This document shows positions 11,966-64,000 of a stretch of DNA of 64,000 nt, in pieces. Position numbers and translations under genes: made by a program. Origin of the DNA: Candidatus Woesearchaeota archaeon. Lineage in GTDB: Archaea > Nanobdellota > Nanobdellia > SCGC-AAA011-G17 > PNOQ01. The first letter of the stretch is position 1; each line of letters begins with the position of its first letter. Location of the stretch: assembly GCA_964471565.1 (NCBI GenBank), contig CAYYFK010000001.1, positions 36,692 through 100,691 of the forward strand, in the 5' to 3' direction. The notes beneath the pieces were generated by a model that was given only the letters and a program-made list of their open reading frames with translations, ran no database searches and was not told the DNA's origin.

Positions 11966-12042
11966 GGGACGGTAGCTTAATCTGGGAAAGCACTAGACTG
12001 AAGATCTAGGGATTGAGGGTTCAAATCCCTCTCGTCCCACCA
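11966..12042 (+). tRNA. tRNA-Phe (anticodon GAA), CCA encoded
   Basis: Folded by hand: acceptor GGGACGG pairs with TCGTCCC, anticodon stem CTAGA/TCTAG, loop CTGAAGA, T-arm GAGGG-TTCAAAT-CCCTC, 3' ACCA. Confidence 0.85.
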
Positions 12043-13811: not shown

Positions 13812-14342
13812 GTGATGTTCATGAACAATAAAAAGGGTGCAATTGAAATGTCTATGACTACAATAATAATAGTAGTTATTGGGATTACTCTTCTTAGCCT
13901 AGGTTTAGTCTGGGTAAAAACAATATTTGATAATTTAGGAGATACAACTGTAGATGCATTTGATCAAGTAGATGCAGCAATAGGTGAGCTAGGAACTATA
14001 AATAGTCCACTAACAATTAATCCAGACAAAATAAGAGTTGAACAAAAAGGGGCAAAGAGTGTAGATGTGATAGTCGCTAATTTTGAAAGTGAGGATCTTG
14101 TATTCACAGCGGTAGCTGAGGTAGTTGGAGATAATGAGCAAATAAAATGTTTATTCGTGGACACTCGTGAAGGAGAATCTAAAGAATACACCCTAGAATC
14201 GGGACAACAAGCAAAATTATCTCTAATCGCAGATGATAAAAGTAGCGCTCTAGGATTTGATAATTTTTGTAATGTTCAAATAGAGGGATTGTCTGGAGAT
14301 AATATAGAAACTCTTCAAATAGAAATCGTAATGAAAGAATAA
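13812..14342 (+). CDS. Type IV pilin-like protein (class III signal peptide)
   Basis: NNKKG|AIEMSMTTIIIVVIGITLLSLGLVWV. Same IEMS motif as 59799..60365. Confidence 0.6.
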   Translation: MMFMNNKKGAIEMSMTTIIIVVIGITLLSLGLVWVKTIFDNLGDTTVDAFDQVDAAIGELGTINSPLTINPDKIRVEQKGAKSVDVIVANFESEDLVFTAVAEVVGDNEQIKCLFVDTREGESKEYTLESGQQAKLSLIADDKSSALGFDNFCNVQIEGLSGDNIETLQIEIVMKE

Positions 14343-28701: not shown

Positions 28702-28733
28702 AAAATTTAAAATCTTACTAAACTTATAAAGGT

Positions 28734-37474: not shown

Positions 37475-37566
37475 TCTACACCCCTCTTTTTAATAAAAAT
37501 AAACAAGAAAAAGTGATATAAAAACCTTTCTAAATCAGTTTACCTACAAAATAATAAAAAGAAAAA

Positions 37567-37884: not shown

Positions 37885-37924
37885 TTTATACCTTTTTAAT
37901 TTTATTAATATATAAATCTTTCTT

Positions 37925-39945: not shown

Positions 39946-39963
39946 GGTTTTTAAAAATTACTA

Positions 39964-40530
39964 TTATCCTGTAAAGGTGCAAATAAAAGTTATAGTTCCA
40001 CTTTTCATTCCTGATCCCTCTCCGATTGGAACAGTAGCATTTACACTAACATTCATCTCATCAGTAGCAGCCGCAAAAGCTAGATCAGAAACCAAAATTT
40101 CGGCCGCACCAACAGAATTATTAATAATTTTAAAGCCAGTTACGCAAGTTCCACTTTCAGTTTCATTACATTGCATTGTCCAATTTTGAGTTGGTGCTGT
40201 CTCTGTTATAAATAAATCATCCGTAGAATAACCAGTTATGTTCTGCCCCACATTTCCTGTATTCTCCAAAACTATAAAATCTGGAACCGTAATCTCTTCG
40301 CTCCTATTATAATTTCCCCTAGTTATATTTCCTAAATTAATTGTACTATCTATAGCACTACAGGCAGTAGTGGTATTGACCTCCAATTTAACAGTTCCAG
40401 TAGTAGTAGCAGCTCCAGTTATAGTGTCCATAAAAGAAACACTAAGCCAAGTTCCAGAAACAGAAGCGATAATCGCCATAGCCAATAAAATAGCTAAACT
40501 ATTATTCGATGCCTTCATTTCCCTCAACAC
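39964..40530 (-). CDS. Secreted N-glycosylation-rich small surface protein, tandem paralogue 1
   Basis: Signal MKASNNSLAILLAMAIIASVSG. About 10 N-x-S/T sequons in 188 aa. About 75% aa identity to 40779..41321. Confidence 0.6.
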   Translation of the reverse strand: MLREMKASNNSLAILLAMAIIASVSGTWLSVSFMDTITGAATTTGTVKLEVNTTTACSAIDSTINLGNITRGNYNRSEEITVPDFIVLENTGNVGQNITGYSTDDLFITETAPTQNWTMQCNETESGTCVTGFKIINNSVGAAEILVSDLAFAAATDEMNVSVNATVPIGEGSGMKSGTITFICTFTG

Positions 40531-40801
40531 CCTCTTCTTTTATTTCATCAGCCACGACATTCAAACCTACAAATCCAGTAGCACTAGACTCCAAAACTAT
40601 ATTATTAGTGACTGGCCCACCATAAGAATGAGAATAGTCATAAACTGCATATGCCCCAAAGATGGAAACAATAACTGCCACAACCAACAAAGCAATAATG
40701 ACCTTGTCAGAGACCTCTCTCTTATCACCTTTTTTCATATAAAGAATATGAGAAGTAAAAATATATAAATCTTTTCCTTTAACCAGAGTATGTACAAACA
40801 A
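40502..40801 (-). CDS. Small membrane protein (likely starts at internal MKKGDKRE...)
   Basis: MKKGDKREVSDKVIIALLVVAVIVSIFGAYAV: one TM helix, acidic C-terminus. Lies between the tandem paralogues. Confidence 0.35.
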   Translation of the reverse strand: MFVHTLVKGKDLYIFTSHILYMKKGDKREVSDKVIIALLVVAVIVSIFGAYAVYDYSHSYGGPVTNNIVLESSATGFVGLNVVADEIKEEGVEGNEGIE

Positions 40802-41321
40802 AAGTTATAGTCCCAGTTTTCATTCCAGAGGACTCTCCGATAGGTACAGTAGCATTCACACTAACATTCATCTCATCAGTAGCAGCTATAGTAACCAAAT
40901 CATTAACTAATGTTTCCGCAGTTCCTACAGACGAATTTATTATTTTAAACCCATTCACACAGGTTCCACTCTGGCTTACATTGCACTGCATTGTCCAATT
41001 TTGAGTAGGGGCAGCTGAAGAATCAAACAAATCCGAAGTAGAATAACCAGTTATATTAAGTAAAACATTTCCGTTATTCTCAATAACAACAAAATCAGTA
41101 TCAGGAGTGCCATCAATCTCTTCACTCCTATTATAATTTCCCCTAGTTATATTTCCCAAATTAATTGTACTATCTGTAGCAGTACAAGAAGTAGAAGCAT
41201 TAACTTCCAATTTTATAGTCCCAGTTGTAACTGCTGCCCCTGTTATAGTATCCATAAAAGAAATTGCTACCCACGTGCCAGTTATAGTAGACACAACTGA
41301 AATTACCAACAAAATCACCAA
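40779..41321 (-). CDS. Secreted N-glycosylation-rich small surface protein, tandem paralogue 2 (non-ATG start)
   Basis: Long DNA stretches identical to paralogue 1 (e.g. ctcctattataatttcccctagttatatttcc). No in-frame ATG; upstream in-frame codons still encode ...SNNFLVILL matching the paralogue-1 signal. Confidence 0.55.
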   Translation of the reverse strand: MVILLVISVVSTITGTWVAISFMDTITGAAVTTGTIKLEVNASTSCTATDSTINLGNITRGNYNRSEEIDGTPDTDFVVIENNGNVLLNITGYSTSDLFDSSAAPTQNWTMQCNVSQSGTCVNGFKIINSSVGTAETLVNDLVTIAATDEMNVSVNATVPIGESSGMKTGTITFVCTYSG

Positions 41322-47681: not shown

Positions 47682-48659
47682 TTATTGATTACTCAATATC
47701 TTTATATCTCTTTTAGTAGTTTCAGTGTATTTATATTCAACGCTTACATCTAAGCTTTGAGTATATTGTGCAGTTTGATCCACATCCATTATACATACAA
47801 GGATCTTTTCTTGCCCTTCAGCCAAAGTTAAATCTCCTTCAACTCCACTTCCGGATGGGAAATTACAAGAGATTGCCTCTGGATCAACATTGTTTATTTT
47901 AACATGCACCTTATTCTTTTCTTGTTGTGCAGCTAAAAGATCGATATCTTCACAAGAGACTACATCACTATATACATTCCCAGTTCCTTTATTTTCAAAG
48001 CCTATTTTAAAACTAACTTGACTAAGTCCTCTTAATTCCTCATTAAAGCTAGTTATCTGTACTGGTCCACTAGAAACACTCCCACTACCCAAATTAACTC
48101 CAGCATAATCACATACTTCTTCTGAATCTGAATCTTCTATTCTCTTAGAAGTAACACATGCCTCTATATCAGATTTAGTTTGATATGGATAACAAATCTT
48201 AGCAAATAACGTAGTGTCATAAAATTGCTGATTAATTGTTCCAGAATAATCTATTTCTCCCATATCAACCAAGGCCTCTCCACCAACATCAAAAATATCT
48301 TTCTCAATTGGATATAGGCTATTTGAGACTAATTTAAAATCGAAATCCAATGTACTAAATTCATTTGGTGCTACACCAAAAAGTTTAAGTTTCACAGTAT
48401 TTTCTGGAACTTCGTACTCGCCCATATTAATAACTTTAATTTTAACATCTACAACATCATCTTCGCCAAATTCAGAAGGGGGCATTCCCTCTTCAAATTT
48501 CATTTGTAAAGCATCATTTCCACCGATATATGGTCCAATTCCTCCACCAGTAGGTGTAGTTCCCTGCTCACAAGCAGCAACAAAAATCACCATCACAGCC
48601 AAAAACGCTAACATTATTTTTTTCATAATATCTCCCTCCTTTATTGATCGTCCCACCAA
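47682..48659 (-). CDS. Secreted protein with lipobox-like signal (IFVAAC-EQ)
   Basis: MKKIMLAFLAVMVIFVAACEQG. 3' end overlaps the next gene. Confidence 0.5.
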   Translation of the reverse strand: MVGRSIKEGDIMKKIMLAFLAVMVIFVAACEQGTTPTGGGIGPYIGGNDALQMKFEEGMPPSEFGEDDVVDVKIKVINMGEYEVPENTVKLKLFGVAPNEFSTLDFDFKLVSNSLYPIEKDIFDVGGEALVDMGEIDYSGTINQQFYDTTLFAKICYPYQTKSDIEACVTSKRIEDSDSEEVCDYAGVNLGSGSVSSGPVQITSFNEELRGLSQVSFKIGFENKGTGNVYSDVVSCEDIDLLAAQQEKNKVHVKINNVDPEAISCNFPSGSGVEGDLTLAEGQEKILVCIMDVDQTAQYTQSLDVSVEYKYTETTKRDIKILSNQ

Positions 48660-49555
48660 TCGGTATTGAACACAATTTTCTTAGATTTTACTGATTTATA
48701 TTTGTATCCTAAATTTATATTGAGATTATCTTTATAAATTATAGGCGATTCATCAAATTTCAAGTCAGCCGTACACTCAATTGGGTCTCCTTCTTGGAAT
48801 ACAACTCTTCCTTCTCTATCCTTACATGTAAACTCTGCTTGAGTTCCACTTAAAAAAACATGAACATCAATCAAATCAAATTGGCTATCTTTTTCCTTAA
48901 CTATCTCTCCAGTTGATGCTTTGTTTAGATATATTTTCAAATCTATTTTGCTATTTCCAGCAACTCTCCTTATATCCTTCTCAATTTTAGAAACAACCAA
49001 CGGAAATGCCTTTTGTTGTATTTCGGAATTGCCTAAACTTTCCTCTGCGTCACAATCAATATCATATTGTAAATTTGGATTATCTAAAATACATACATCA
49101 ACACTAGAAAGGCTATCAATCGAAAATTTCATCTCAGCGTATATATTTACATCTCCAACACTATCGTCAAGATCATGATAAGAATAAGTAGCCATTTCAG
49201 AAGGGAAATAAATTATTTTCTCAGAAGGAATAATTGTTCCCTTGCTTCCTTCATATGCTTCATCTACATATTCAGAAATACAGTCCTCAGTTACAGGAAC
49301 CCCCCCATAATAATCGGATCTATCTCCTTTGATGCACAAATCAAATTCTGCCCTTTCTGTCAATTCATTAAAAACTTTTAATCCTACTTGAAATTCCTCC
49401 TCTTCTGACAGATCTTCTTGAGGATAATCTTCTAGAAACTCAAAATCTAAAACCTTTGGGCCAACTCCGAGTCCCTCTTGACTAGGTTGCTCACAAGAAG
49501 AAATCACTAACAAACTAATTACTAAAAAAAATACAATTCCTCTTTTTTCAACCAT
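48641..49555 (-). CDS. Secreted protein with lipobox-like signal (VISSC-EQ)
   Basis: MVEKRGIVFFLVISLLVISSCEQP. Acidic, Cys-containing. Confidence 0.5.
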   Translation of the reverse strand: MVEKRGIVFFLVISLLVISSCEQPSQEGLGVGPKVLDFEFLEDYPQEDLSEEEEFQVGLKVFNELTERAEFDLCIKGDRSDYYGGVPVTEDCISEYVDEAYEGSKGTIIPSEKIIYFPSEMATYSYHDLDDSVGDVNIYAEMKFSIDSLSSVDVCILDNPNLQYDIDCDAEESLGNSEIQQKAFPLVVSKIEKDIRRVAGNSKIDLKIYLNKASTGEIVKEKDSQFDLIDVHVFLSGTQAEFTCKDREGRVVFQEGDPIECTADLKFDESPIIYKDNLNINLGYKYKSVKSKKIVFNTDWWDDQ

Positions 49556-49593
49556 AATTTATAAAACATAAAGGATGTTTAAAAATGTTTCTT

Positions 49594-50922
49594 TTAACCA
49601 TTAGATTCTAAAATTTCCACATTGGTAATACTTGTAATACCAAAGTTATACCATACCTCTACCTTAACAGATTCTCTAATTGGAGCAATCTCAGGAGAGA
49701 CTATAACATCAAAATAACACCCAGAACTAACTACTCTTTTTTCATCATAACATTTTTTATCCGTACATTCTTTATTCAAACTTTCATAAACCTCATTCTT
49801 AAGACCAAAAACTTCAAAATTTCCATCAATATAAGAATTACTCAAATCAAATTGACAAGCGGAGTTATCAACAAAACTTATTACTCCTTCTGGAACATGT
49901 ATTCTAAAATCTGTAACTTCTTCTAATTTAATTCTTTGGTCTGTGATTATATTAACTTCTAAATATGGATTAATTATACTTTCCAAAATAAACGGTTGGG
50001 GATAATCAATTTTTATTGGAACCGTAACTGGCCCAGGACTATATTCACTTCCAACTGGTTTTCCTTCTTCTGATTCATCTGCATCTTCCTGGTTAACAAC
50101 ATGTAAACTAATATTAGATTTACTAAAAAATCCATCAAAAGAACTTATCAATTCTACGGTTCTAGTATCTTTCCTACCTAAATATTCTACACCATCCTCA
50201 AACACACAAGAAATTGTTTGGGTTGGAAACTTCTGATTAGGCAATTTTTCAGAATAAGGGGGCAAAATTATTTCCTCAGGAAATATTTCATCTGCACTCT
50301 CTTTCCCATATCCTTGAAGTTTACAATCAAAATTAACTTCAGTACTCTGAGAACTCAAACTTCCAATATCTATTTTGGCTATAACATTAATTGGATGATT
50401 TTCCTTAAATTCATTACCAGGAGTTCCCTTGAAACTAGCAACAGTAACACCAATTCCCTCTTTTTTTAATTCATTGTCTTCAAATCCCCCAACATCTTCT
50501 AAATTAGAAAAACTAAATAAATTAGTAAAAAACCCTTTAATTCCCTCACCAGATACCTCTCTATTTTGCCATCTTTGCACAACATTTTCTTCCCACCATC
50601 CGCTTTGCCAAGCAAAGATATAAAACGTTCCAATTAAAAGCAACAAAATGAAAACTTTAGTAACTATTCCCCTACTAGAGGGGGCCTTAAATATCACAAA
50701 CAAATAAACAACTACAACCAAAAATCCAATTAACCCCCATTTACTTTGCCAATTATATGCTAAAATGGCTCCAATAATTACTCCAATTAGAAGAATAGCC
50801 CATTTAAAAATCCATATAATTGCCCTTTTCGAAAGCACATCTTCTGACAAATCTTCTGGATTTTCTCCTTCCCGTATAACTCTATTTAACAAAAATCTTG
50901 CGATTTTCTCCTTCATAATCAA
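49594..50922 (-). CDS. Polytopic membrane protein with large extracytoplasmic domain
   Basis: Three N-terminal TM helices (AIIWIFKWAILLIGVIIGAILAY; GLIGFLVVVVYLFVIF; VFILLLLIGTFYIFAW), then a 330-aa soluble domain. Confidence 0.5.
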   Translation of the reverse strand: MIMKEKIARFLLNRVIREGENPEDLSEDVLSKRAIIWIFKWAILLIGVIIGAILAYNWQSKWGLIGFLVVVVYLFVIFKAPSSRGIVTKVFILLLLIGTFYIFAWQSGWWEENVVQRWQNREVSGEGIKGFFTNLFSFSNLEDVGGFEDNELKKEGIGVTVASFKGTPGNEFKENHPINVIAKIDIGSLSSQSTEVNFDCKLQGYGKESADEIFPEEIILPPYSEKLPNQKFPTQTISCVFEDGVEYLGRKDTRTVELISSFDGFFSKSNISLHVVNQEDADESEEGKPVGSEYSPGPVTVPIKIDYPQPFILESIINPYLEVNIITDQRIKLEEVTDFRIHVPEGVISFVDNSACQFDLSNSYIDGNFEVFGLKNEVYESLNKECTDKKCYDEKRVVSSGCYFDVIVSPEIAPIRESVKVEVWYNFGITSITNVEILESNG

Positions 50923-50930
50923 ACCTCTTT

Positions 50931-52091
50931 TTATTCATAAACTATTTTTAATTCATCAATACTAAATTCGCTATCTGGCCTAACCTCTACAAAATTATTT
51001 CCTTTTCTAATAAAGTTACTAATATCAAATTGAGCAAAAGTATTTTCAGTGTTTAGATTAATTATTTCATCATTAATTATAATTTCAGCTTTTTTCCTAT
51101 CTCCAAACATTTCCAAACTAAGATAATAATCTTCTGCATCTTCATATACATCATTTCTTATATAAAACGAGTATGATGGAAAAACCCTTCCTTCAACTTC
51201 ATTTCTGATCTCTATATCACTAATTAAGTAATCTCCTCCACTAACACTAAATTTAAGTTCATTAACTCCAGATTCAAAATCTTCTTCATCTAGTTCAACA
51301 GTATATTCATCACTCATACAAGGAACTAATTTACTAAATATCAAACGGCTATTCAAATAGGCTTTCATAATGTTACTTTCCCCAGCATTGCCCTTGCAAA
51401 ATACAAAGAATTGTAATTCAGAATCTTGAATTGATCTTTTCTCAGAAGAACTAACTGAAAAATCTAGAATTTCGAAGGAGTGAACTATCTCATATTCTTT
51501 TTTTAGTTTTATATCCTTCAAATAATATTCATTGCTAGACCAGAAAACCAAACCTGAAGGACTAACTTGTAATCTAAGTTTATTTTCCTCTTCCAAATAT
51601 TCCTTTGGTAAACTAATAGTCTCTATTCTATTTTCATTAAGTTTTTGATTTAGAATTTGTTTTCCATTTAAAGTAAGAATCAAATCTCCACTAGCATCAA
51701 CTACTGCAAATCTCAAGGACAACCTATCTATGGAATCAAGGTTATTCAAACCAAATTCCAACTCTTGATCTAATTCTCCAAATAATCCATTTCTAATTTC
51801 TAAAGAATTCGATAATATTACAGTTTCTGGTTCATCATGAATAAATAAATCTACAGATTCAAGGGGATGATCAATTACATCATCATAATCCAAATCCAAA
51901 TTTCCTGGAGAAACCTTCAAGAGTACTCCTTCAGACAACTCGCCATCACATTCCTCACTACAATCATCACCCAATAGCCTACATCTTTCACAAGGGGGCA
52001 TAACAAGGGTATACAAAATAATAAGAATCGCAATTAGTATTATCAGCCCTTGTATCTTTGGGTCATTCCCTCTTTTATTCATAAAGAACAT
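50931..52091 (-). CDS. Secreted/anchored protein (KRG N-terminus, Cys-rich start)
   Basis: MFFMNKRG|NDPKIQGLIILIAILIILYTLVMPPCERC... Confidence 0.45.
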   Translation of the reverse strand: MFFMNKRGNDPKIQGLIILIAILIILYTLVMPPCERCRLLGDDCSEECDGELSEGVLLKVSPGNLDLDYDDVIDHPLESVDLFIHDEPETVILSNSLEIRNGLFGELDQELEFGLNNLDSIDRLSLRFAVVDASGDLILTLNGKQILNQKLNENRIETISLPKEYLEEENKLRLQVSPSGLVFWSSNEYYLKDIKLKKEYEIVHSFEILDFSVSSSEKRSIQDSELQFFVFCKGNAGESNIMKAYLNSRLIFSKLVPCMSDEYTVELDEEDFESGVNELKFSVSGGDYLISDIEIRNEVEGRVFPSYSFYIRNDVYEDAEDYYLSLEMFGDRKKAEIIINDEIINLNTENTFAQFDISNFIRKGNNFVEVRPDSEFSIDELKIVYE

Positions 52092-52613: not shown

Positions 52614-53492
52614 ATGGAAATTATGATTATAGCATTGGTTTTTATCTATCTAATAATTTCTACAATTTCAGATATAAAAACTACAGAAATTCCTGATTTC
52701 TTAAATTATTCATTTATTTTTATTGGAATTTTCATTTATGGATTAAAAACGTTAGTGACTAATAATAATACTTATTTTCTATCCTCGATAATAACAGTAG
52801 GCATATTTTTTATACTTGGGGCAATTATGTACTACACTAAACAGTGGGGGGGAGCAGATTCAAAATTACTTATGGGTCTAGGGGCATTAATCCCAATATA
52901 TCCAGCGATTCTGTTAAATACTTTTTCACTTAAAACTTCAACATTTTTGGGAATAGATCTCTTTCTAAATCTATTAGTAGTTGGGGCAATTTATTCATTG
53001 CTTTTCGTTATCCACCTTATTATAAAAAACAGAAAAAAATTCAAAAAAGAATTCAAAAAAATATATCAAAAAAAGGAAGTAAAACTATTCGAAAAGATTA
53101 TGTGGATTTCAATAATCCTAATTAATGTACTTAGTTTTTTCTTATTTCAAAATAGTTTACAAAAGAATTTTGTGATTACAATCTCTTTGATTATCCTTTT
53201 ATTTAATTATTTAACAATCTCTATAAAAGCTATAGAAAACGTTTCAATGTATAAAACAATATCTACAACAAGATTGAGAGTTGGAGACTATATAACAAAA
53301 GAACTAAAAACCAACAATAAGATAATATACAAGCCAATAGTTCATGGAATAAATGAAAAACAAATGAAAGAAATAAAAAAACATTTCTCAAAAGTCGAAG
53401 TAAAGGAAGGGATAGTCTTCGCACCTGTATTTTTAGTTGCAACAACAATAACTTTATTTTTCGGAAATATACTTCTCTACTTATTACCCTAA
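52614..53492 (+). CDS. Prepilin/preflagellin peptidase (A24 family; PibD/FlaK-like)
   Basis: ISTISD(20)IKTTEIPD (D-x7-IPD) and WGGAD(82)SKLLMGLG (GxGD-K). Asp-Asp spacing of 62 matches FlaK/PibD. At least 6 TM helices. Confidence 0.8.
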   Translation: MEIMIIALVFIYLIISTISDIKTTEIPDFLNYSFIFIGIFIYGLKTLVTNNNTYFLSSIITVGIFFILGAIMYYTKQWGGADSKLLMGLGALIPIYPAILLNTFSLKTSTFLGIDLFLNLLVVGAIYSLLFVIHLIIKNRKKFKKEFKKIYQKKEVKLFEKIMWISIILINVLSFFLFQNSLQKNFVITISLIILLFNYLTISIKAIENVSMYKTISTTRLRVGDYITKELKTNNKIIYKPIVHGINEKQMKEIKKHFSKVEVKEGIVFAPVFLVATTITLFFGNILLYLLP

Positions 53493-54622: not shown

Positions 54623-55660
54623 TTAGACATCATCTCTGATTCCCTTATCAGTTATGTAAAACATACATTCTCCATCAGCTAACGCAGGAGCATCTACTAA
54701 CTTTGCAACTCTACTTCCTTTTTTACCTCTTCTCAAATAAAGTCTAGTTGTAGAAGCGTGTGCAACTATATGCCCCCCTATAGCTTCAGTTGGATCTCCA
54801 AAGAATGTATCTGGTTTAGACATAACTTGATTTGTTACATAGACAGCAATATTATAAGTATGTGCCAACTTCAATAATATATGCATATGCTTATTCAGTT
54901 TTTGTTGTCTCTCAGATAATGTTCCCCTTCCAATAAACTCACTTCTAAAATGACTCATTAAAGAATCGACTATAACAATTTTCACAGGAACGTTTTCTTT
55001 ATTTATTAGTTCTTCAACTTTCTCTGCCAATAACATTTGGTGGTCAGAATTAAAAGCTCTAACAACCTTAATATTCCCCAGTAATTCTTCAGCATTCAAA
55101 CTGTTCTCCTCTGCTATTTGTTGTATTCTTTCAGGTCTAAATGTTCCTTCGGTATCAATCCAAACCACTGCTCCTCCAGCACCTCCTTCTTTTACAGACA
55201 TTTGAGCACTAACTGCTAGCTGATGTGCCAAAGCCGTCTTGCCACTTCCGTAGGCTCCATAACACTCAGTAATCGAACCAGATTCAAACCCTCCTCCAAC
55301 AAGTTCATTGAAAGCATTGCTCCCAGTAGTTATCTTAATCACACTTTCTCTTTTTTTGAGTAAATCCAAACCAGTCTCAAACCCCATATTCAATTTGTCT
55401 CTAGCAACTTGAATTATTTTTCTGGCAATTGCATCAGAAACTCCAGAAGCTTCCCCTAACTTGGAGGGGGATGCTACTGCAACACTCAATAAAGTGTCAT
55501 ATCCTGCATCCTGCAATTTTTCAGCCGTAGCAGGCCCAACTCCTGGCAAATCATTAATAGTAAAATTCTCTTCTACTAAATTTTCTTCTTCAACAATATT
55601 AGTTTCTTCAATATCTTTATTAGATTCCTCAATATTTTCATTTATTATCTCTTCACTCAT
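54623..55660 (-). CDS. radA: DNA repair and recombination protein RadA
   Basis: HhH LPGVGPATAEKLQDAGY, Walker A GAYGSGKT, Walker B VIVDS. Confidence 0.9.
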   Translation of the reverse strand: MSEEIINENIEESNKDIEETNIVEEENLVEENFTINDLPGVGPATAEKLQDAGYDTLLSVAVASPSKLGEASGVSDAIARKIIQVARDKLNMGFETGLDLLKKRESVIKITTGSNAFNELVGGGFESGSITECYGAYGSGKTALAHQLAVSAQMSVKEGGAGGAVVWIDTEGTFRPERIQQIAEENSLNAEELLGNIKVVRAFNSDHQMLLAEKVEELINKENVPVKIVIVDSLMSHFRSEFIGRGTLSERQQKLNKHMHILLKLAHTYNIAVYVTNQVMSKPDTFFGDPTEAIGGHIVAHASTTRLYLRRGKKGSRVAKLVDAPALADGECMFYITDKGIRDDV

Positions 55661-58117: not shown

Positions 58118-59095
58118 CTAAACTTCCTCCATCAACTCAACAGGATTCGCTTCTTTTATCTTTCTAGCTACAAACTCCAACCTGTTAAACATTTCATTGT
58201 TATTGACCTTCCCTTCAATGATTAGTTGTTTTCCTAGAGCCTCATTACGCCACTGGTCAAACAGTCCTAAAGAATAGTTTTCCATATTCTCTTGATTAAA
58301 AGAGAATAGTCCTTGAATAACATCTCCAAAGCCAACAACCCTTATATTTCCAGTGCCATCATCAAAAAAGAAATTTATCACTCCTCTCTTCTCGACATCA
58401 ACTTTCCCATGTTCCTTACAAGTACTGTCTTCCAAAACTTTCTTTCCACATTTAGTACAAACAGTAAAAAATCTTGGTTCAAATAGTTGAACAACTGTAC
58501 CATAAACTTCAACAAAATCTCCTGCTTTAATTTCTTCTATCTTTTTCCTGCCTAGCTTACTAGTTGTCTGAGAAACTTCTCCAACCTTCTCTCCTTTAGG
58601 ATTAACAATAATTTGTGAGCTATTACCCATATGAACCTCTACAAAGCCATTATTATCCCGAGAATAGCCATTTTTAATTTTAACAATATCATTAGCCTTA
58701 AACATATTTTTTTCAATTTCATTAATTATTGGTTCATCCCAAACTACAATTCTAATAGAGCCAGTTTCATCTCCAATTGTAAAATTAACAACTCTTCCAC
58801 TTCTTCCATTTTTATTAAAACTAACTACATCTCTAACTTCCATAACCTTTCCAACAATAGAAATTCCAGACATCCCTCGGGGAATCTCTTTCACTTTCAA
58901 ACTTTTTTCTGCAGAAACACTTTCAAATAATTTGACCCCTAACTGATTAGCAACTATATGTGCAGCGCCTTCCTTACTAATTAAATCAGACAACTGACTT
59001 ATTTTCTCATTAACTTTTTGTTCAATTTCTTCATTAGAAAGTCCCTTTTCCTCTTTTATTTTATCAATAATTTGATTATAACTGAATTTTAACAT
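58118..59095 (-). CDS. rpa: Replication protein A (OB-fold ssDNA-binding protein with C-terminal Zn ribbon)
   Basis: LISKEGAAHIVANQLGV (RPA N-terminal signature), OB-fold region, CTKCGKKVLEDSTCKEHG. Confidence 0.8.
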   Translation of the reverse strand: MLKFSYNQIIDKIKEEKGLSNEEIEQKVNEKISQLSDLISKEGAAHIVANQLGVKLFESVSAEKSLKVKEIPRGMSGISIVGKVMEVRDVVSFNKNGRSGRVVNFTIGDETGSIRIVVWDEPIINEIEKNMFKANDIVKIKNGYSRDNNGFVEVHMGNSSQIIVNPKGEKVGEVSQTTSKLGRKKIEEIKAGDFVEVYGTVVQLFEPRFFTVCTKCGKKVLEDSTCKEHGKVDVEKRGVINFFFDDGTGNIRVVGFGDVIQGLFSFNQENMENYSLGLFDQWRNEALGKQLIIEGKVNNNEMFNRLEFVARKIKEANPVELMEEV

Positions 59096-59814
59096 TTCAC
59101 CCCTTCCTCCCCAAAGTTTAGTTCTTCTTCAAAATCTATACCTATTTTTATAAGTATATCTTCTTCTAAACTTGGGGTAGTGAAGGATATTTTAAAAAGA
59201 TTGCCCTCTTTTTTATAACTAAAACCAGAAGATTCAGAATTCCAACAACTTTCTAAACTTCCACACTCATCTACTACTGATTTAATCTTATCAACTTTAC
59301 TTATAAACTTATCAAAATTGAAATCTTCAATAACATGATTTTCCTTAAATTCCTTGGTATATACTAAATTGTAGGTTTCCTCTTCAACTTGTTTAATAAT
59401 AGGAAAATTAGCTGAAACAACCAATCTATCTTCTTCTCTAGAAACATCATATCCTTCCCCTAAATCTGAAATAATTATGCTCTTCAACTTATCCCAATCA
59501 TTTGGGAAACACTCTATGTCTTTTTTCCACAATATGTACTCTCCAACAAAAACTGGATTTTCAAGACCTGCGTTATTCAATATTTTCATAACGGATTCCT
59601 CAGACTTTTCTTCTAATTGACTTTTCAAAAAATATTCTTCTTCATTAGCTAAAACATAATTTCTAATAACCTGTGTAGGAACCTCCCCAATTTCGAAGCT
59701 GTATTTCTGATTTTCAATTTTAAAAAGAATTGTAAGGGCCAAACTAACAGCAAGAATAGTAAAGATTAATACATATACCATTAATATTCCTCTTTTATTC
59801 ATGGACATCCCCAA
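59089..59814 (-). CDS. Pilin-like protein (class III-type N-terminus)
   Basis: MGMSMNKRG|ILMVYVLIFTILAVSLALTILF. Confidence 0.5.
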   Translation of the reverse strand: MGMSMNKRGILMVYVLIFTILAVSLALTILFKIENQKYSFEIGEVPTQVIRNYVLANEEEYFLKSQLEEKSEESVMKILNNAGLENPVFVGEYILWKKDIECFPNDWDKLKSIIISDLGEGYDVSREEDRLVVSANFPIIKQVEEETYNLVYTKEFKENHVIEDFNFDKFISKVDKIKSVVDECGSLESCWNSESSGFSYKKEGNLFKISFTTPSLEEDILIKIGIDFEEELNFGEEGVKC

Positions 59815-60365
59815 TCACCACCTATTTGGATATCATCTTCTACATAAAAATAAACATAGTCATCTTCATTTAATCTTTGGTATATCACTGGACCATCAAA
59901 AGTATACGGCGCAATAAAAAAACCATTATGCCAAGTAAATAATTTCATTTGCTGAACTGAATTCATATTACTCCACTTATCACCATTAGATAATCCAAAA
60001 ACAAATCCTCTTTTCTTTAATTTCCCATCTACATGGTAACAATATGTTATTTCATCCAAAAATCCCTGAACTTCTCCCTCAACTAAATCTTTATTTTCTC
60101 CATCAGCCATATAATCTTTTATCAAATCACTAATTAAAATATCTTCATCATCTAGCATTACTCCTGTATTCAAAAAATTAACAACATCTGGATAATAATT
60201 GTAATTTTTTACTTTATTATCTGCCTTAACAACACTTTCTATTTCGCCAGTATTTAAAGAACCAGTAAAGGCATAGATAGAATAGAATATCAATATTATA
60301 AAAATAAACATAATTGCCACTATATCTGACATTTCTATCTGTCCTCTTTTATTTTTTAAGATCAT
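59799..60365 (-). CDS. Type IV pilin-like protein (class III signal peptide)
   Basis: MILKNKRG|QIEMSDIVAIMFIFIILIF. Shares the IEMS motif with 13812..14342. Confidence 0.6.
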   Translation of the reverse strand: MILKNKRGQIEMSDIVAIMFIFIILIFYSIYAFTGSLNTGEIESVVKADNKVKNYNYYPDVVNFLNTGVMLDDEDILISDLIKDYMADGENKDLVEGEVQGFLDEITYCYHVDGKLKKRGFVFGLSNGDKWSNMNSVQQMKLFTWHNGFFIAPYTFDGPVIYQRLNEDDYVYFYVEDDIQIGGDWGCP

Positions 60366-60822
60366 TTACAACCTCAATCTCTAATATTCCATTTTTATTT
60401 TCAAATAAAACATAATGTTTAGAAAAACTGCAAAAATATCTTTCTCTTATATTTTTCATATTATTCAACAGACATTGACTTGTTAATTGTTTATTAATTT
60501 CCACTTCATCAACTAAATTTTTATCTAAATCAAATAATTTCAAATGCAACCCTAGTTTAGAATCTTCATCCAACCCAGTGCATTTTTTTATGTTTTCAAT
60601 ATCAAAATTATCTAAATTTATTTTACCAAACTCTTCAGAAGCAAGACAATCTTCAGAAAACAACAATCTAGAAACAACCAACTCATTTTCTATTTCCTCT
60701 ATTTCAAAATCTTGGATAAAATAAGCAGCAGCTCCAACCATAATCACTACAGCCACCAATAAAATAATAACTACATATACAATCATCTTTTGAGTCTCTT
60801 TACTTACTTGATATCCAGCCAT
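60349..60822 (-). CDS. Pilus-associated small membrane protein
   Basis: N-terminal TM KMIVYVVIILLVAVVIMVGAAAYF. Overlaps both neighbours. Confidence 0.45.
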   Translation of the reverse strand: MAGYQVSKETQKMIVYVVIILLVAVVIMVGAAAYFIQDFEIEEIENELVVSRLLFSEDCLASEEFGKINLDNFDIENIKKCTGLDEDSKLGLHLKLFDLDKNLVDEVEINKQLTSQCLLNNMKNIRERYFCSFSKHYVLFENKNGILEIEVVNDLKK

Positions 60823-61223
60823 GATGTATCTCCATAAACTAATAATTTATTATTTTTTAATTCAAATATTAACGGATCCAAACTAGAACTTATTGAGTCT
60901 CCTTTATCAACAAACTCATTATCCAAACAATAATATCCTTCGTAAAGATACTCTGAAGCTATGCTTCCAACCCTAACTTCACAATCACTTTTAGTCTCAA
61001 CTCTAAATTCCTTTTCAGTTTTTGAATAAGTGTATCTCAAATCTAAATCTCCTTCAGAAGTTAGAATAGAACTCTCAATAAGAGCGATATCTCTAGAAAT
61101 TAAATTTTGGTAAACTGCATTATTATTTCCTAAGTTAACTAATGCTGCAGCTATAATAAAAAACACTACAACTGACAATAAAGAATAACCTATCCATAAA
61201 TACAATCTATTCCCCTCTTCCAT
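60804..61223 (-). CDS. Pilus-associated small membrane protein
   Basis: N-terminal TM LWIGYSLLSVVVFFIIAAALVNL. Confidence 0.45.
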   Translation of the reverse strand: MEEGNRLYLWIGYSLLSVVVFFIIAAALVNLGNNNAVYQNLISRDIALIESSILTSEGDLDLRYTYSKTEKEFRVETKSDCEVRVGSIASEYLYEGYYCLDNEFVDKGDSISSSLDPLIFELKNNKLLVYGDTSWLDIK

Positions 61224-61252
61224 TGATCAATATTTAAAAATAGAGATTTATA

Positions 61253-61750
61253 TTAGTTTTGTTGAACAATATCAAAAGAAATCTTTCCTTCACTCTTTTC
61301 AACAGCTAATAAAAATCTTCCACTATTGCCTTCTTCAACATCTAAACTAGTAATCTTTTCAACTTTATTAAAAACAATATTTTCATCAAACAATCTAACC
61401 ATATCTTCAGAAACTAATTTTTCACACCCTTCATCAAAACACAAAGTGATACATGCGGCCATATAACACTCAGGAATATCAGATTCCTTATTATAGGCAT
61501 TTAAATATATTTCATCCCTATCAAAAGCATAAAAGGGCATTTCTTTTCTTTCACCTTCCTCAACATCATTAATCACATCTCCCAACTCTACTAAAGAAGC
61601 TTCTAAAAAATGAGCATCATCATTATCCATATCAGAAGTAAGAGTTCGAATAAAAGGTTCAACAATAAATATAATTCCAATAACAAGCACAGCACCAACC
61701 AAAAGCCCCATTAAAACACTAATGCTAAGTTTTGCTCCTCTTTTTTTCAT
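61253..61750 (-). CDS. Type IV pilin-like protein (class III signal peptide)
   Basis: MKKRG|AKLSISVLMGLLVGAVLVIGIIFIV. Confidence 0.55.
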   Translation of the reverse strand: MKKRGAKLSISVLMGLLVGAVLVIGIIFIVEPFIRTLTSDMDNDDAHFLEASLVELGDVINDVEEGERKEMPFYAFDRDEIYLNAYNKESDIPECYMAACITLCFDEGCEKLVSEDMVRLFDENIVFNKVEKITSLDVEEGNSGRFLLAVEKSEGKISFDIVQQN

Positions 61751-61919
61751 TTTAATTAACTAAATCAAAAAATCCCCCTAATTTTTCCATAAAAACATTC
61801 GCCTGTCCGCCAAATAAAAAGATCATAAATATTAAAATAAGCAAAGCTATCAAAAGATAAACTAAAGTATCAGTAGCCAAAGAAAATCCTTTTTTCATTT
61901 TAAAAAAAAATAAAAAAAA

Positions 61920-62279
61920 TTAAGACAGACATCCGCCTGCGCTTTCTATTGCTCCACATGTCACTAAATCTTGACATCTAGCATATTCGTCAACCTTTCC
62001 ATCACCAGTAGTATCCAACTCATAGTCGATTGTACAGAAATTTGTCTTAAATTTCTCTAATTCTGTAGTATCATAACTGCTACAAAATCCATTACATTCA
62101 ACTACTACTTCTTGAACAGGAAGTGCCCCTTTTTGCCATATGCCTTGGATTTTATCCTTAAAAGTTTCAAAACCTCCAGTAAAGAAGATTGCAACTATTA
62201 TCAAGACAAGTACAGCAAGGATTACAACTATGATTGTGTTTGTTGAAAGCTCTTGACCTCTTTTTTTCATAAACCTCAC
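61920..62279 (-). CDS. Type IV pilin-like protein (class III signal peptide)
   Basis: MRFMKKRG|QELSTNTIIVVILAVLVLIIVAIF. Closest to the canonical KRGQ|E pattern. C-terminal Cys pairs. Confidence 0.65.
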   Translation of the reverse strand: MRFMKKRGQELSTNTIIVVILAVLVLIIVAIFFTGGFETFKDKIQGIWQKGALPVQEVVVECNGFCSSYDTTELEKFKTNFCTIDYELDTTGDGKVDEYARCQDLVTCGAIESAGGCLS

Positions 62280-62322
62280 CTCTTACTAATTTTACTCTAA
62301 ATGGAATTTTTAAGTGTTTTGG

Positions 62323-62976
62323 TTAACATAGTGGCGAATCTTCTAGTGATTTAGCACTAGCTTTGTCCACAATACATATCGTATCTTCTGAGACCTTATA
62401 AAATAATAAGCTCAAATCAACCTCACTTTTAGTTTCCCCTAGAAGATCATTCATTGCAGCAAACTCAGACATTTTATCATATTCATTTAACTCAAAAAGA
62501 ACATAAGATTTTCTACCTTTTTGAATAGTTATTTTTTGATTTTTAAATCGATCTAAAATAGATGTTCCACCAAGTTTAGATGTATCTAAACAAGATTCTG
62601 AAACAAAAGTAATATCTTTAAAATTTCCCTTATCATTATCTAACAAACTAAAGGTAGTTCTTTGACCTTCTTGCTTAGTCTCAAGAAAAAAACCATTTGG
62701 TATATCAAATTTTTCTTTAGTACACCAACAACCAATTTCTTTAGAATCCAAACAAGAGTTATATTCTTGAATAAACGAGTCTTCAAAATATACAACGGCC
62801 TTGCTTCTTAATGTATCTTGATCTTGATTAAAGGAAAAAATTTTATTACTAAACTCATCAAAAAATTCTCCAACTTTAGAATCACTAGGGACTAGAAAAT
62901 TATAAAGGATAAATAAGCCAAATAAAACTAACAAAATCATCAAAGTTCCGTAGACCATAGGTTTCCAATCAGTCAT
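62323..62976 (-). CDS. Pilus-associated membrane protein
   Basis: N-terminal TM MVYGTLMILLVLFGLFILYNF. Confidence 0.45.
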   Translation of the reverse strand: MTDWKPMVYGTLMILLVLFGLFILYNFLVPSDSKVGEFFDEFSNKIFSFNQDQDTLRSKAVVYFEDSFIQEYNSCLDSKEIGCWCTKEKFDIPNGFFLETKQEGQRTTFSLLDNDKGNFKDITFVSESCLDTSKLGGTSILDRFKNQKITIQKGRKSYVLFELNEYDKMSEFAAMNDLLGETKSEVDLSLLFYKVSEDTICIVDKASAKSLEDSPLC

Positions 62977-63127
62977 TATCCTCCACCAAACCTCAAAAAG
63001 GATTTTAAACTATCTAAGATTTCCACCATTCTTTCTCTATTTGAAAAAACCATTATTAAAATAACAACTAAAAATGCTAAAACCAAAATCCAAGTATAAA
63101 TACTCTCCCAACCTAGCTGTCCTTTCT

Positions 63128-63973
63128 TCATTGTCCACATATTTCAATCACCTTATTTGAGTTTCCCACATACAAAGCACTAATATAATCAGTTTTCCTT
63201 CCTACCGCTTCCACTGTATATCCAATTAACATCCCAGAACCACACCCTATTACTGCTCCAGCAAGAGTTCCAACTCCAGGAGTACCAACAACAGAACCAA
63301 TAACAGACCCAGCTTTCCCACCAGCCAAACAACCACCAATAACAGTTGCAATCTCAGTTTTATCTATACTGCCGAAATCCTCCCAAAAATCTTTTCTCTT
63401 ATCCGCAAAGAAAACTACATAATTAGTTTCATCAGTTTTCAAATCAATACCACTAGAAAGAGGATCTATAACTTTACTATTCTCTTCTCCATAAATATAA
63501 GAATAAAATGTTTCGCCCAATATAGGAATCTCCGTATCTCTCAAATACCCATCAAAATTATTTATCTTGGGAATTTCCTTCTGAACTTTATCATTAAAAT
63601 CAATTCTAGAACAGATATGGCACCAATTATCTCCCTTTCCAAAATTCGTATCGCTTAAAAAATCTTTTTCCCCTTTACCAAACATATACCAACAAGAAAA
63701 CATTTCAGTAGCAATCTGTTCCTTTATAATTACTTCATTTTTACTATCTATAGAAAGGGCATTAGTTTCACATTTTAAATCGTCCAAAATGGGTTTACCA
63801 AGAATTTTTGATTTAGCTCTCAACAAAACACTAGTCTTACATGATTCTCTCAATGAAGCTTGTTTTCCCTCTTTTATAATCTCTGGGACTACCCAGAAAA
63901 TAATTCCAGCAACAACTAAAGTAATTATAATTCCAGCAATGATCCACTCCATCTTACCTCTCTTGTTAAACAA
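63128..63973 (-). CDS. Pilin-like protein with Gly-rich C-terminus
   Basis: MFNKRG|KMEWIIAGIIITLVVAGIIFWV. C-terminal GGCLAGGKAGSVIGSVVGTPGVGTLAGAVIGCGSG. Confidence 0.5.
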   Translation of the reverse strand: MFNKRGKMEWIIAGIIITLVVAGIIFWVVPEIIKEGKQASLRESCKTSVLLRAKSKILGKPILDDLKCETNALSIDSKNEVIIKEQIATEMFSCWYMFGKGEKDFLSDTNFGKGDNWCHICSRIDFNDKVQKEIPKINNFDGYLRDTEIPILGETFYSYIYGEENSKVIDPLSSGIDLKTDETNYVVFFADKRKDFWEDFGSIDKTEIATVIGGCLAGGKAGSVIGSVVGTPGVGTLAGAVIGCGSGMLIGYTVEAVGRKTDYISALYVGNSNKVIEICGQ

Positions 63974-64000
63974 TTTGATTCACCCGAGTTATCACAAAAA

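Follow-up and report, generated by a model that had tools for sequence, protein, structure and literature searches.

What structure is encoded by the run of small membrane-protein genes at the end of the window, i.e., the whole 64,000-nt stretch that was analyzed, is the question raised by this locus. The initial annotation had assigned the minus-strand ORFs of 59089-63973 to pilins of a type IV pilus-like structure. That assignment is supported here by ATPase and platform genes, a peptidase gene, synteny, and motif conservation. With a probability of roughly 80%, the pilin-like genes of the region belong to a type IV filament (TFF, type IV pilus-like) operon in a tiny marine Woesearchaeota (DPANN) archaeon. 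The region makes up the distal portion of this type IV pilus-like cluster, whose minus-strand genes follow the order ATPase (772 aa), platform (703 aa), p0 to p10, and RPA-like gene.

Gene organization

All eight ORFs described previously were present in the ORF list of the window, but the count was too low. Ten small minus-strand ORFs, p1 to p10, lie inside the window, and an eleventh, p0, crosses its end (Table 1). The gaps between the genes had been given as 30-170 nt, but the largest, of 150-170 nt, are occupied by the micro-genes p2 and p5. Both were called by public gene callers, and the position of both is kept in related genomes. From p1 to p10, the successive spacings are -13, -1, 43, 21, 1, 29, -19, -17, and -16 nt, and the three pairs reported to overlap by 16-19 nt, i.e., p7/p8, p8/p9, and p9/p10, do so.

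Only 63966-64000 of p0 falls within the window. The full ORF (7666-7785 of the public contig L002) equals window positions 63966-64085 and starts with MLKRG/VMAGYF. Public gene callers did not call p0; in about 12 related loci, the platform gene is likewise followed by a p0-like ORF of 35-40 aa, whose start is KKG-like and which encodes one TM helix. An alternative ATG at 63952 would give a 274-aa p1. The p4 ORF reaches a GTG at 62279 (119-aa version), but the Shine-Dalgarno site GAGGTGA puts the start at the ATG at 62270, giving MKKRGQELS. In p10, the Shine-Dalgarno site GGTGGTGA precedes the ATG at 59808.

Table 1. Features of the filament locus and related genes in the window. Slashes mark predicted cleavage sites.
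Feature	Position	Strand	Length	N-terminal start	Remarks
Stand-alone pilin-like gene	13812..14342	+	176 aa	MMFMNNKKG/AIEMSMTTIIIVVIGITLLSLGLVWV	Strict class III-like pattern
Class III signal (prepilin/preflagellin) peptidase	52614..53492	+	292 aa		A24 family, FlaK-like
RPA-like OB-fold protein	58118..59095	-	325 aa		PF01336, 46.5 bits
p10	59089..59814	-	237-241 aa	M(S)MNKRG/ILMVYVLIFTILAVSLALTILF	Last pilin-like gene
p9	59799..60365	-	188 aa	MILKNKRG/QIEMSDIVAIMFIFIILIFY	Fits strict class III-like pattern
p8	60349..60822	-	157 aa	MAG/YQVSKETQKMIVYVVIILL	19-nt overlap with p7
p7	60804..61223	-	139 aa	MEEG/NRLYLWIGYSLLSVVVFF
p6	61253..61750	-	165 aa	MKKRG/AKLSISVLMGLLVGAVLVIGIIFIV	Pilin-like minor subunit, ectodomain with Cys
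p5	61752..61898	-	48 aa	MKKG/FSLATDTLVYLLIALLILIFMIFLFGG (MKKG/FSLATD)	Second domain-less pilin-like micro-protein
p4	61920..62270	-	116 aa (from ATG)	MKKRG/QELSTNTIIVVILAVLVLIIVAIFFTGG	Shine-Dalgarno site before ATG
p3	62323..62976	-	217 aa	MTDWKPMVYG/TLMILL	N-terminal TM helix; Shine-Dalgarno site GGTGGAGG
p2	62976..63140	-	54 aa (called as 54 or 51 aa)	MWTMKKG/QLGWESIY	C-terminal LRFGGG
p1	63128..63973	-	281 aa (from TTG)	MFNKRG/KMEW
p0 micro-ORF	63966..64000 (3' end)	-	39 aa	MLKRG/VMAGYFRTILILLAIVLALGILFFFVITRVNQIV	From ORF chain in extended contig

Assembly machinery and peptidase

The machinery had been expected just outside the window, on the downstream side. The public contig, which is 100% identical to the window across 12.7 kb, extends past the window end, and both an ATPase and a platform gene were found there on the strand of the small ORFs. 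The genes lie outside the window as expected, but upstream in the direction of transcription. The ATPase is a FlaI/GspE/CpaF-type secretion ATPase of the T2SSE family (PF00437, 53 bits vs. a cut-off of 24.9) with the Walker A motif GGTRSSGKSS. Its homology to solved structures, i.e., afGspE 2OAP (3e-28), CpaF (4e-22), and FlaI (6e-16), spans residues 305-664.

The ATPase gene overlaps the platform gene, which ends 124 nt past the window end. The platform candidate is a polytopic membrane protein with about 8 TM segments, and it matched no entry of Pfam, NCBIfam, or PDB. T2SSF matches were found in 8 of 28 platform orthologs, all under the gathering score, at about 176-303 and about 463-602; this is the two-repeat arrangement of PilC/FlaJ.

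The peptidase gene, missed by the initial annotation, is located 5.6 kb from the pilin-like genes on the opposite strand. The protein matched PF01478 with 46.3 bits (cut-off 26.5) and NCBIfam FlaK_Arch with an E value of 1.8e-14, which is below the equivalog cut-off. It was also aligned to FlaK 3S0X (E 5e-7). Both catalytic positions are filled, i.e., Asp20 and the Asp of G-G-A-D82. This A24 peptidase is expected to be the enzyme that cleaves MNKKG-type leaders.

Synteny was found in other Woesearchaeota. The order of ATPase, platform, 11 small TM proteins, and RPA is also present in L014, L015, and L021, and near-identical runs were found in L008, L013, L022, and L025.

Class III signal motif

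All ten ORFs p1 to p10 have an N-terminal uncharged hydrophobic segment of 21-37 residues, so the TM segment ascribed to each of the eight ORFs is real, and [KR]G stands directly ahead of it in seven. The control set was the 57 other window ORFs of at least 100 aa, of which 17 have an N-terminal TM segment and five carry [KR][GA] just before it. By simple binomial calculation, with independence assumed, the chance of 10/10 ORFs with TM is about 6e-6 and that of 7/10 with the motif about 4e-6.

In related Woesearchaeota, nearly every small protein starts with M(N)KKG or KRG; a few polar residues come next, and then a stretch of about 22 hydrophobic residues. Judged from the sequence, this start is a class III (prepilin) signal. 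Of the 94 run ORFs in ten loci, 76 carry the motif. Its consensus is N(-4) K(-3) K/R(-2) G/A(-1), and the residue most often present at +1 is Q. No alternative start codon lies between the motif and the TM helix in 52 of the 76, so KKG must be translated there. These leaders resemble the processing site KG/Q of Methanococcus maripaludis Epd pilins (PMC4371748).

Five class III signatures had been listed before. The five K/R-G strings are present, but the motif alone is not diagnostic because Sec or lipoprotein signals of the ordinary type also start with KRG in this window (21504, 38797, 48641, and 12087); the argument is therefore carried by context. A strict FlaFind-like pattern accepted only p2, p5, p9, and p10 of the small operon proteins in the window, and the KRG/VM of p0 also fits it by eye. 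In p0, p1, p9, and p10, an ATG follows 1-4 codons after KRG, and the KRG codons (AAAAGAGGA) resemble a Shine-Dalgarno site, so the leaders of these four could be untranslated.

Small proteins of the operon

The best-conserved pilin-like protein is p4, a candidate for the major subunit. Its alignment showed an invariant K-G-Q-x-L-S-T-N-T, six invariant Cys, and an EF-hand-like D-x-x-G-D-x-K-V-D loop, and relatives numbered 1536 cluster representatives at E<=1e-3 and 260 at E<=1e-10. The p2 protein, a candidate Flp/EpdE-like subunit, has no globular domain and carries Q at +1, W at +4, and E at +5. Eleven p2 orthologs were found by phmmer, and its KKG-x-x-x-W-[ED] start and LRFG tail are kept in 15 loci. 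Direct matches of p5 were seven and weak; in relatives, its position holds a 58-77 aa protein like the p4 N-terminus, which matches p4 in L008, L014, L021, and L011. By iterated local profile, p6 had 11 members in 11 loci. Orthologs were also found for p9 (L014 and L008) and p10 (L008, 4e-20, and L015).

AF2 models of p4 and p1 showed an N-terminal helix of 35-54 residues followed by a small globular domain (p4: helix 13-47, pLDDT 74). In p1, the N-terminal TM helix leads into a Cys-rich alpha/beta ectodomain. Beyond it there are a second hydrophobic stretch, rich in Gly and unusual for a pilin, and a C-terminal tail that is conserved. The protein would be a minor subunit of pilin-like type or else a factor for assembly in the membrane. 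The invariant Cys of p1 and p4 fit with an extracellular location.

The pilin-like proteins of the operon matched no Pfam or NCBIfam family, and 86 diverse p4 relatives matched no Pfam pilin family. No solved pilin was found by profile searches or matched by AlphaFold models of two of the proteins, and the p4 model had no PDB match. Calling them pilins is therefore based on context, motif conservation, and overall layout rather than on homology. The stand-alone gene at 13812 had no Pfam match, and its product matched the N-terminus of UpsA only faintly (E 0.27); this protein may be a further substrate of the A24 peptidase and the filament machinery.

Comparison with known systems

The locus resembles the Epd pilus of M. 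maripaludis, i.e., archaeal TFF system 1 or clade 1, in being a multi-gene operon with ATPase, platform, and several minor pilins. The Epd operon has 11 genes, its prepilins are cut at K-G/Q with Gln preferred at +1, and its major pilin has no globular domain, as would be the case with p2 and p5 (PMC4371748; 10.64898/2026.04.22.720090). In contrast, the platform of Epd is encoded by two separate genes and a peptidase of its own (EppA/EpdA) is assigned to it, whereas here one platform with two weak T2SSF repeats was found, the peptidase gene lies 5.6 kb off on the opposite strand, and the ATPase has an N-terminal extension of roughly 300 residues. In sequence, the operon proteins were not found to resemble Epd pilin families.

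The extended ATPase N-terminus and the single-gene platform are shared with euryarchaeal system 2 or clade 2 pili, e.g., Haloferax volcanii PilB3-PilC3 with PilA pilins and the GspE-type ATPase of Archaeoglobus. Shared as well are several pilins alongside pilin-like proteins without a clean SPIII motif, and among solved structures the ATPase matches A. fulgidus GspE best. The signature pilins of system 2 are those of arCOG02911 (PilA family), and no Pfam or NCBIfam pilin model matched the proteins here. The stretch examined showed no MinD/FleN-like ATPase, and the leader is a very short MNKKG, not of the haloarchaeal type.

The bacterial Tad/Flp pilus (CpaF, TadB/TadC, Flp, TadE/F/G) has a homologous ATPase core. 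Very short pilin candidates, the Gly cleavage site, the acidic residue near +5 (p2 G/QLGWE), and a set of larger pseudopilin-like proteins are also alike. However, the organism is an archaeon with a FlaK-like peptidase and no secretin or outer-membrane component, its platform is a single fusion protein, and G/XXXXEY, the Flp motif, is not matched strictly. With the archaellum, the locus shares the ATPase superfamily, a related platform, and a FlaK-type A24 peptidase, whereas its ATPase is about 230 residues longer than FlaI, and archaellin (PF01917), FlaF, FlaG, FlaH, FlaC/D/E, and FlaX-type matches were absent from the operon and the window ORFs scanned.

Alternative readings

It is quite possible that the machine is the same but of mixed composition, with only p2, p4, and p5, and perhaps p0, p6, p9, and p10, as cleaved pilins, and p1, p3, p7, and p8 as uncleaved membrane-anchored assembly or alignment components. 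The latter might then be functional analogues of PilN/PilO, TadG, or the system 2 pilin-like proteins without SPIII motif. The window copies of p3, p7, and p8 carry no basic residue at -2 (in p7, acidic residues replace them), p1 has its second hydrophobic stretch and conserved tail, and the p3 position has lost the motif in L014 (METKTIVYG), L024, and L011. However, most p3, p7, and p8 orthologs do carry MNKKG. They start with MNKKG, MKKAG, and MKSLNKKG at p3 (L021, L015, and L008), with MNKRG/EFGG and MNKKG/VNTRLVLW at p7 (L014 and L021), and with MKKG/YDLG, MVNKKG/YILQ, and MNKKG/KTFS at p8 (L014, L008, and L021). The G at -1 is also kept in p7 (EEG/N) and p8 (AG/Y), and PibD-type peptidases reportedly tolerate D/E at -2, as in the processing sites DAVS and DSAV (PMC4371748).

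A short pseudopilus, not a long adhesive pilus, is an unlikely product of the locus. Such a piston would drive DNA uptake (competence) or protein secretion, and it would explain why minor-pilin-like genes are so many and why the ssDNA-binding RPA is translationally coupled. The RPA-like gene shares 7 nt with p10 and seems to close the pilin transcription unit, the order is kept in five other genomes (L008, L013, L014, L015, and L021), and RadA and thymidine kinase are encoded 3.4-4.5 kb downstream. Type IV-like pili were reported as necessary for natural transformation in methanogens, and DPANN archaea are generally nucleotide auxotrophs, both of which favor DNA uptake. In ultra-small prokaryotes, competence genes co-occur with pilin genes (PMC9938205). 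However, the window ORFs scanned included no gene for a DNA channel or receptor (ComEC, ComEA-like). As RPA is a replication protein with a housekeeping role, its position may be a neutral relic, and no evidence here makes it a part of the pilus. More distant Woesearchaeota have the ATPase and platform without a pilin run behind, and their RPA-related matches are only weak, to short opposite-strand OB-fold ORFs.

That the small proteins are membrane or surface proteins with ordinary Sec-inserted signal anchors, adjoining the ATPase and platform by chance, with K/R-G as the usual positive n-region of signal peptides here or a translated Shine-Dalgarno site, would fit the KRG of Sec and lipoprotein signals, the ATG positions, and the missing pilin homology, but is very improbable given the tight packing with overlaps from p7 to p10, the gene order kept in several species-level genomes, the frequency of G/A at -1 with translated leaders, hydrophobic cores of about 20+ residues vs. 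about 12-15 in Sec and lipoprotein signals, the lack of AxA or lipobox after the cores, and the dedicated A24 peptidase nearby.

Proposed filament and its meaning

In the type IV filament operon proposed here, the N-terminal hydrophobic helix would insert each small protein into the membrane, and the A24 peptidase would cut after Gly or Ala, removing leaders of 4-8 residues in the window; those of relatives are mostly 4-5 residues, i.e., M-(N)-K-K/R-G. The hexameric ATPase, via the platform, would then pull the mature subunits out of the membrane and stack their helices into a filament. The shaft may be formed by p4 and/or the domain-less p2 and p5 (mature about 45 aa, like Flp or EpdE), and the larger, fast-evolving, Cys-rich p1, p3, and p6 to p10 may be minor, tip, or priming pilins or membrane-anchored assembly factors. 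The role is likely attachment to surfaces or host cells. The system is thus of the expected kind, i.e., an archaeal type IV filament locus, and its pilin-like proteins stand outside all described families.

Gene content of the pilin-like run

Ten small ORFs were identified on the minus strand at the window edge and numbered p1 to p10 in transcription order. The initial annotation had counted eight, and all eight are present, but two micro-genes of 54 and 48 aa fill what it had taken for large gaps of 150-170 nt. The spacings between the ten ORFs are -13, -1, 43, 21, 1, 29, -19, -17, and -16 nt, and the last three values agree with the overlaps of 16-19 nt described before. An uncharged stretch of 21-37 residues heads all ten proteins. 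The five K/R-G strings reported earlier were found directly before this stretch. With two further ones, i.e., MKKG↓QLGWES and MKKG↓FSLATD (↓, putative cleavage point), the motif takes this position in seven of the ten ORFs. Among 57 other window ORFs of at least 100 aa, 17 showed an N-terminal transmembrane (TM) segment and five showed the motif. By a simple binomial, the chance of the ten-ORF run is approximately 6e-6 for the TM segment and 4e-6 for the motif; a run of this kind is therefore very unlikely by chance. The start of p4, the 119-aa ORF, was placed at the ATG at 62270 by a strong GAGGTGA site, which gives MKKRGQELS.

An eleventh gene, p0, lies on the same strand between the platform gene and p1; this micro-ORF (MLKRG↓VMAGYF...) runs across the end of the window. 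It is not annotated by public gene callers. Its counterpart, a single-helix ORF of 35-40 aa, was found in the same place in approximately 12 related genomes.

Features of the locus and of the surrounding window (L002, public contig that extends past the window end)
Feature	Position	Strand	Product	Match or remark
Pilin-like run, p1-p10	59089-63973	minus	281, 54, 217, 119, 48, 165, 139, 157, 188, 241 aa	
p0	L002 7666-7785 (window part 63966-64000)		39 aa	
Platform candidate	ends 124 nt past window end	same strand	703 aa, ~8 TM segments	overlaps ATPase gene by 17 nt
Secretion ATPase	L002 3214-5532, 2.2 kb past window end	same strand	772 aa	T2SSE, PF00437
Candidate accessory genes	L002 463-3147, outside window			upstream of ATPase
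A24 class III signal peptidase	52614-53492	plus		PF01478, 46.3 bits (cut-off 26.5); 5.6 kb from run, opposite strand
Archaeal signal peptidase I	1348-1998	minus		TIGR02228, 77 bits (cut-off 51.85); below Pfam threshold used
RPA-like OB-fold gene	58118-59095	minus		overlaps last pilin-like gene by 7 nt
tRNA-Phe	11966-12042			Rfam/tRNA scans
Stand-alone gene	13812-14342	plus	176 aa	45 kb from operon
Four consecutive ORFs	47682-52091	minus		no Pfam match
First of the four ORFs	50931-52091	minus	386 aa	Cys-rich
Secreted/surface protein block	26686-41321	minus		includes a DUF2341 protein
Long ORF of the block	29930-37474	minus	2514 aa	
Paralogous pair	39964-40530; 40779-41321		~185 aa each	common N-terminus

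Probable assembly genes beyond the window

The exact-protein look-up returned 23 contigs. One of them, L002, is a 130.9-kb contig from a JGI marine metagenome; it matches the last 12.7 kb of the window at 100% identity and continues for another 7.7 kb. The secretion ATPase encoded there scored 53 bits with PF00437 against a cut-off of 24.9. Its core, residues 305-664, is homologous to Archaeoglobus fulgidus GspE (2OAP, 3e-28), CpaF (4e-22), and FlaI (6e-16), the Walker A motif is GGTRSSGKSS, and approximately 300 extra residues are present at the N-terminus.

The platform candidate itself showed no Pfam, NCBIfam, or PDB match, by profile or by sequence search of the PDB. Sub-threshold T2SSF matches were found in eight of its 28 orthologs (best 22.5 bits, gathering score 25.2). 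They sit at residues ~176-303 and ~463-602, which is consistent with the two-repeat layout of PilC/FlaJ proteins. [quoted passage not shown] Judged from these sequence comparisons, the 703-aa membrane protein is a likely, rather than a proven, platform of the PilC/FlaJ type.

No ATPase or platform was found among the window ORFs scanned, from which 10243-10998, 11170-11940, and the 2514-aa ORF were left out, and this is in line with the initial annotation. The machinery had been predicted just downstream, outside the window; the genes do lie outside it, but upstream in the direction of the operon. The lack of both genes on an extended contig had been named as evidence against a pilus, and this is not what was found, because L002 carries the ATPase and the likely platform.

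The region upstream of the ATPase encodes three paralogous membrane proteins of approximately 170-180 aa and two divergently transcribed coiled-coil proteins of 126 and 238 aa. This module adjoins the ATPase in 44-57 of approximately 57 related loci, a wider distribution than that of the pilin run. Its proteins are candidate accessory subunits with no family assignment.

Putative class III signal sequences

At the level of sequence pattern only, eight of the eleven proteins show a class III-type layout, i.e., a short basic leader, Gly or Ala at -1, and a hydrophobic helix of approximately 20 residues. Of 94 run ORFs in ten related loci, 76 show the motif; its consensus is N(-4) K(-3) K/R(-2) G/A(-1), and most leaders are 4-5 residues long. 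Gln is the commonest +1 residue (20 of the 76 motif-bearing ORFs) and is not universal; K/R-G↓Q is present in p2, p4, and p9. The window copies of p3, p7, and p8 have no basic residue at -2, but have orthologs starting with MNKKG.

The motif alone does not identify a pilin here, because KRG also heads clear Sec or lipoprotein signals in the same window, i.e., MKKRGNSVFLLVFFVILLASSANA↓A, MVKRGIIIFLVLLCMFSSAYA↓L, and two lipobox-like sequences. In these signals, the hydrophobic core is only approximately 12-15 residues long, and the cleavage site can be recognised.

The K-R-G codons (AAAAGAGGA or AAGAGAGGT) resemble a Shine-Dalgarno sequence, i.e., a ribosome-binding site, and the motif could be read as such a site merely translated. 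An in-frame ATG lies 1-4 codons after KRG in p0, p1, p9, and p10 (window 59781-59814, 60332-60365, and 63952-63973; L002 7666-7686), and the shorter form of p1 is the one picked by public gene callers. However, between motif and helix, 52 of the 76 orthologous ORFs offer no start codon at all, so that translation of the leader is genuine in most family members. As a general explanation, the translated Shine-Dalgarno site was rejected on this ground. It possibly still applies to p0, p1, p9, and p10 of this genome, in which the codons may be a dual-use sequence or mark alternative starts.

Candidate filament subunits

In Pfam and NCBIfam scans of all ten proteins, no family was found at threshold. 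The best-conserved protein is p4, with a family of 1536 cluster representatives at E<=1e-3. This family has an invariant K-G-Q-x-L-S-T-N-T, six invariant cysteines, and an EF-hand-like loop, D-T-T-G-D-G-K-V-D-E, at residues ~86-97 of p4. Among 86 diverse relatives searched against Pfam, two gave weak EF-hand_5 matches and none matched a pilin family; the p4 profile matched no solved structure in the PDB. The head domain of p4 may bind calcium. Its conservation, its own strong Shine-Dalgarno site, and the longest upstream spacer make p4 a candidate for the shaft subunit.

The head domain is missing in p0, p2, and p5, and the head-less p2 and p5 are also shaft-subunit candidates. The p2 protein has a conserved Trp at +4, Glu or Asp at +5, and a C-terminal LRFGG tail, and it recalls Flp and EpdE. 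In p1, residues ~205-281 comprise a second hydrophobic region, which resembles a glycine zipper, and after it a conserved tail, K-x-D-Y-x-S-x-L-Y-V-G-N...C-x-Q. This arrangement is unusual for a pilin, and AF2 confidence is low there.

Conservation and synteny

ATPase relatives numbered 4929 at E<=1e-10 and span at least 599 species-level genomes. The 80 best ATPase-bearing genomes are mostly labelled Woesearchaeota or Nanoarchaeota, with about a dozen Methanosarcinales, and the platform comes after the ATPase in 69 of the 80 loci fetched. Some Woesearchaeota homologs of the ATPase (P0052, P0062, P0096, and P0119) are approximately 1280 aa long, with intein and LAGLIDADG domains (PF14528, PF14890).

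In the closest relatives (loci L008, L013-L015, L021, L022, L025, and others), the same series of small proteins follows the platform, i.e., ~37, ~280, ~52, ~200, ~120, and ~60 aa, then five of 120-250 aa. The RPA gene ends the series in five of these loci (L008, L013-L015, and L021). The small proteins evolve fast, and several window proteins had only 1-5 phmmer orthologs; despite this, their position and N-terminal design persist across relatives. Iterated local profiles gave no clean families because the N-terminal segment is common to the proteins and made the profiles merge, with 43 members found by both p2 and p4. More distant Woesearchaeota have the ATPase-platform pair without the pilin run, and pilin-like runs lie some kilobases off.

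Peptidases and other genes of the window

The window is archaeal, with approximately 31% G+C, and encodes RadA, eIF2-alpha, GINS, tRNA-intron endonuclease, Hjc, PCNA, eRF1, L31e, and S19e. The nearest relatives of its proteins are annotated as Woesearchaeota or Nanoarchaeota. A single tRNA gene was detected in Rfam/tRNA scans.

The class III signal peptidase gene of the A24 family had been overlooked. In alignment to FlaK (3S0X), both catalytic Asp residues are kept. The signal peptidase I is its Sec-type counterpart.

The RPA-like gene adjoins the run, and this position is kept in five other genomes. RadA and thymidine kinase follow within 4.5 kb (54623-55660, minus strand).

The stand-alone 176-aa gene has a class III-like start, MMFMNNKKG↓AIEMSMTTIIIVVIG..., no Pfam match, and a faint match to the N-terminus of UpsA. 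In the group of four ORFs, the first starts with MFFMNKRG and a 22-residue hydrophobic stretch, and two others are lipoprotein-like (...VAAC and ...ISSC). The group may be another surface module beside the prepilin peptidase. In the long block of secreted or surface proteins, the paralogous pair shares the N-terminus ...ISFMDTITGAA.TTGT.KLEVN...

Proposed function and significance

In the proposed mechanism, the prepilin-like proteins would insert via the N-terminal helix, and the A24 peptidase would cut after Gly or Ala and so release the MNKKG-type leader. Lifted by the ATPase hexamer through the platform, the subunits would then leave the membrane and join a helical filament. The larger Cys-rich proteins are candidates for minor or tip pilins, or for anchored assembly factors. 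Adhesion, either to surfaces or to host cells, would be the most likely role. A pseudopilus for DNA uptake or secretion is a weaker alternative to the adhesive filament. The one feature that suggests it is the translationally coupled RPA gene, the placement of which may mark a functional tie to DNA uptake or be conserved gene order and nothing more. An archaellum was excluded because archaellins and Fla accessory genes are absent: no archaellin, FlaF, FlaG, FlaH, FlaC/D/E, or FlaX Pfam match was found in the operon, the 7.7 kb past the window, or the window ORFs scanned.

Functionally, the closest analogue is the Epd pilus of Methanococcus maripaludis, which is encoded by an operon of 11 genes and has K-G↓Q sites and a major pilin that lacks a head domain (PMC4371748; 10.64898/2026.04.22.720090). 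Epd has two separate platform genes, flanking or adjoining the ATPase, and its own EppA-type peptidase, whereas here one fused platform gene is present and the only A24 peptidase seen lies 5.6 kb off on the opposite strand. Three features agree with the description of euryarchaeal system 2: an ATPase with a long N-terminal extension, a platform encoded by one gene, and pilin-like proteins both of the SPIII and of the non-SPIII kind (10.64898/2026.04.22.720090). The best structural relative of the ATPase is Archaeoglobus GspE, and a CpaF-type ATPase and very short pilins are shared with bacterial Tad/Flp systems.

A broader reading, which we regard as unlikely, is that the locus is the first example of a TFF subtype that spans the Woesearchaeota and differs from the archaeal systems described so far. 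Such a subtype would have an ATPase of approximately 765 aa with an N-terminal domain of 300 residues specific to the lineage, a platform that is fused and highly divergent, and a private module in which two coiled-coil proteins, divergently transcribed, accompany three paralogous membrane proteins. It would also have eleven pilin-like proteins outside Pfam and NCBIfam, three of them micro-pilins of 39-54 aa. Its role would be host-cell attachment and/or DNA uptake, the latter hinted at by the co-transcribed RPA gene.

Type IV pilus genes are routinely recorded in DPANN genome papers (PMC9938205, PMC8561730), and TFF loci of DPANN are already included in a 2026 census (10.64898/2026.04.22.720090). 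In surveys of metagenome-assembled genomes, "type IV pili (FlaIJK) present" is logged and the filament subunits are rarely identified (e.g., PMC8561730). Current understanding is not overturned, because the architecture found here is the expected one. The added value is that eleven unannotated pilin-like proteins, micro-ORFs among them, are given in order, together with the conserved accessory module beside the ATPase, outside the window. An attached life on other cells is presumed for DPANN archaea, including Woesearchaeota. The locus supplies a concrete candidate subunit set, with an order conserved in the closest relatives, micro-ORFs missed by annotation pipelines, and a p4 family of approximately 1500 cluster representatives without annotation. 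These candidate subunits are targets for metatranscriptomics, proteomics, filament structure prediction, and antibody or cryo-ET work on DPANN-host contact.
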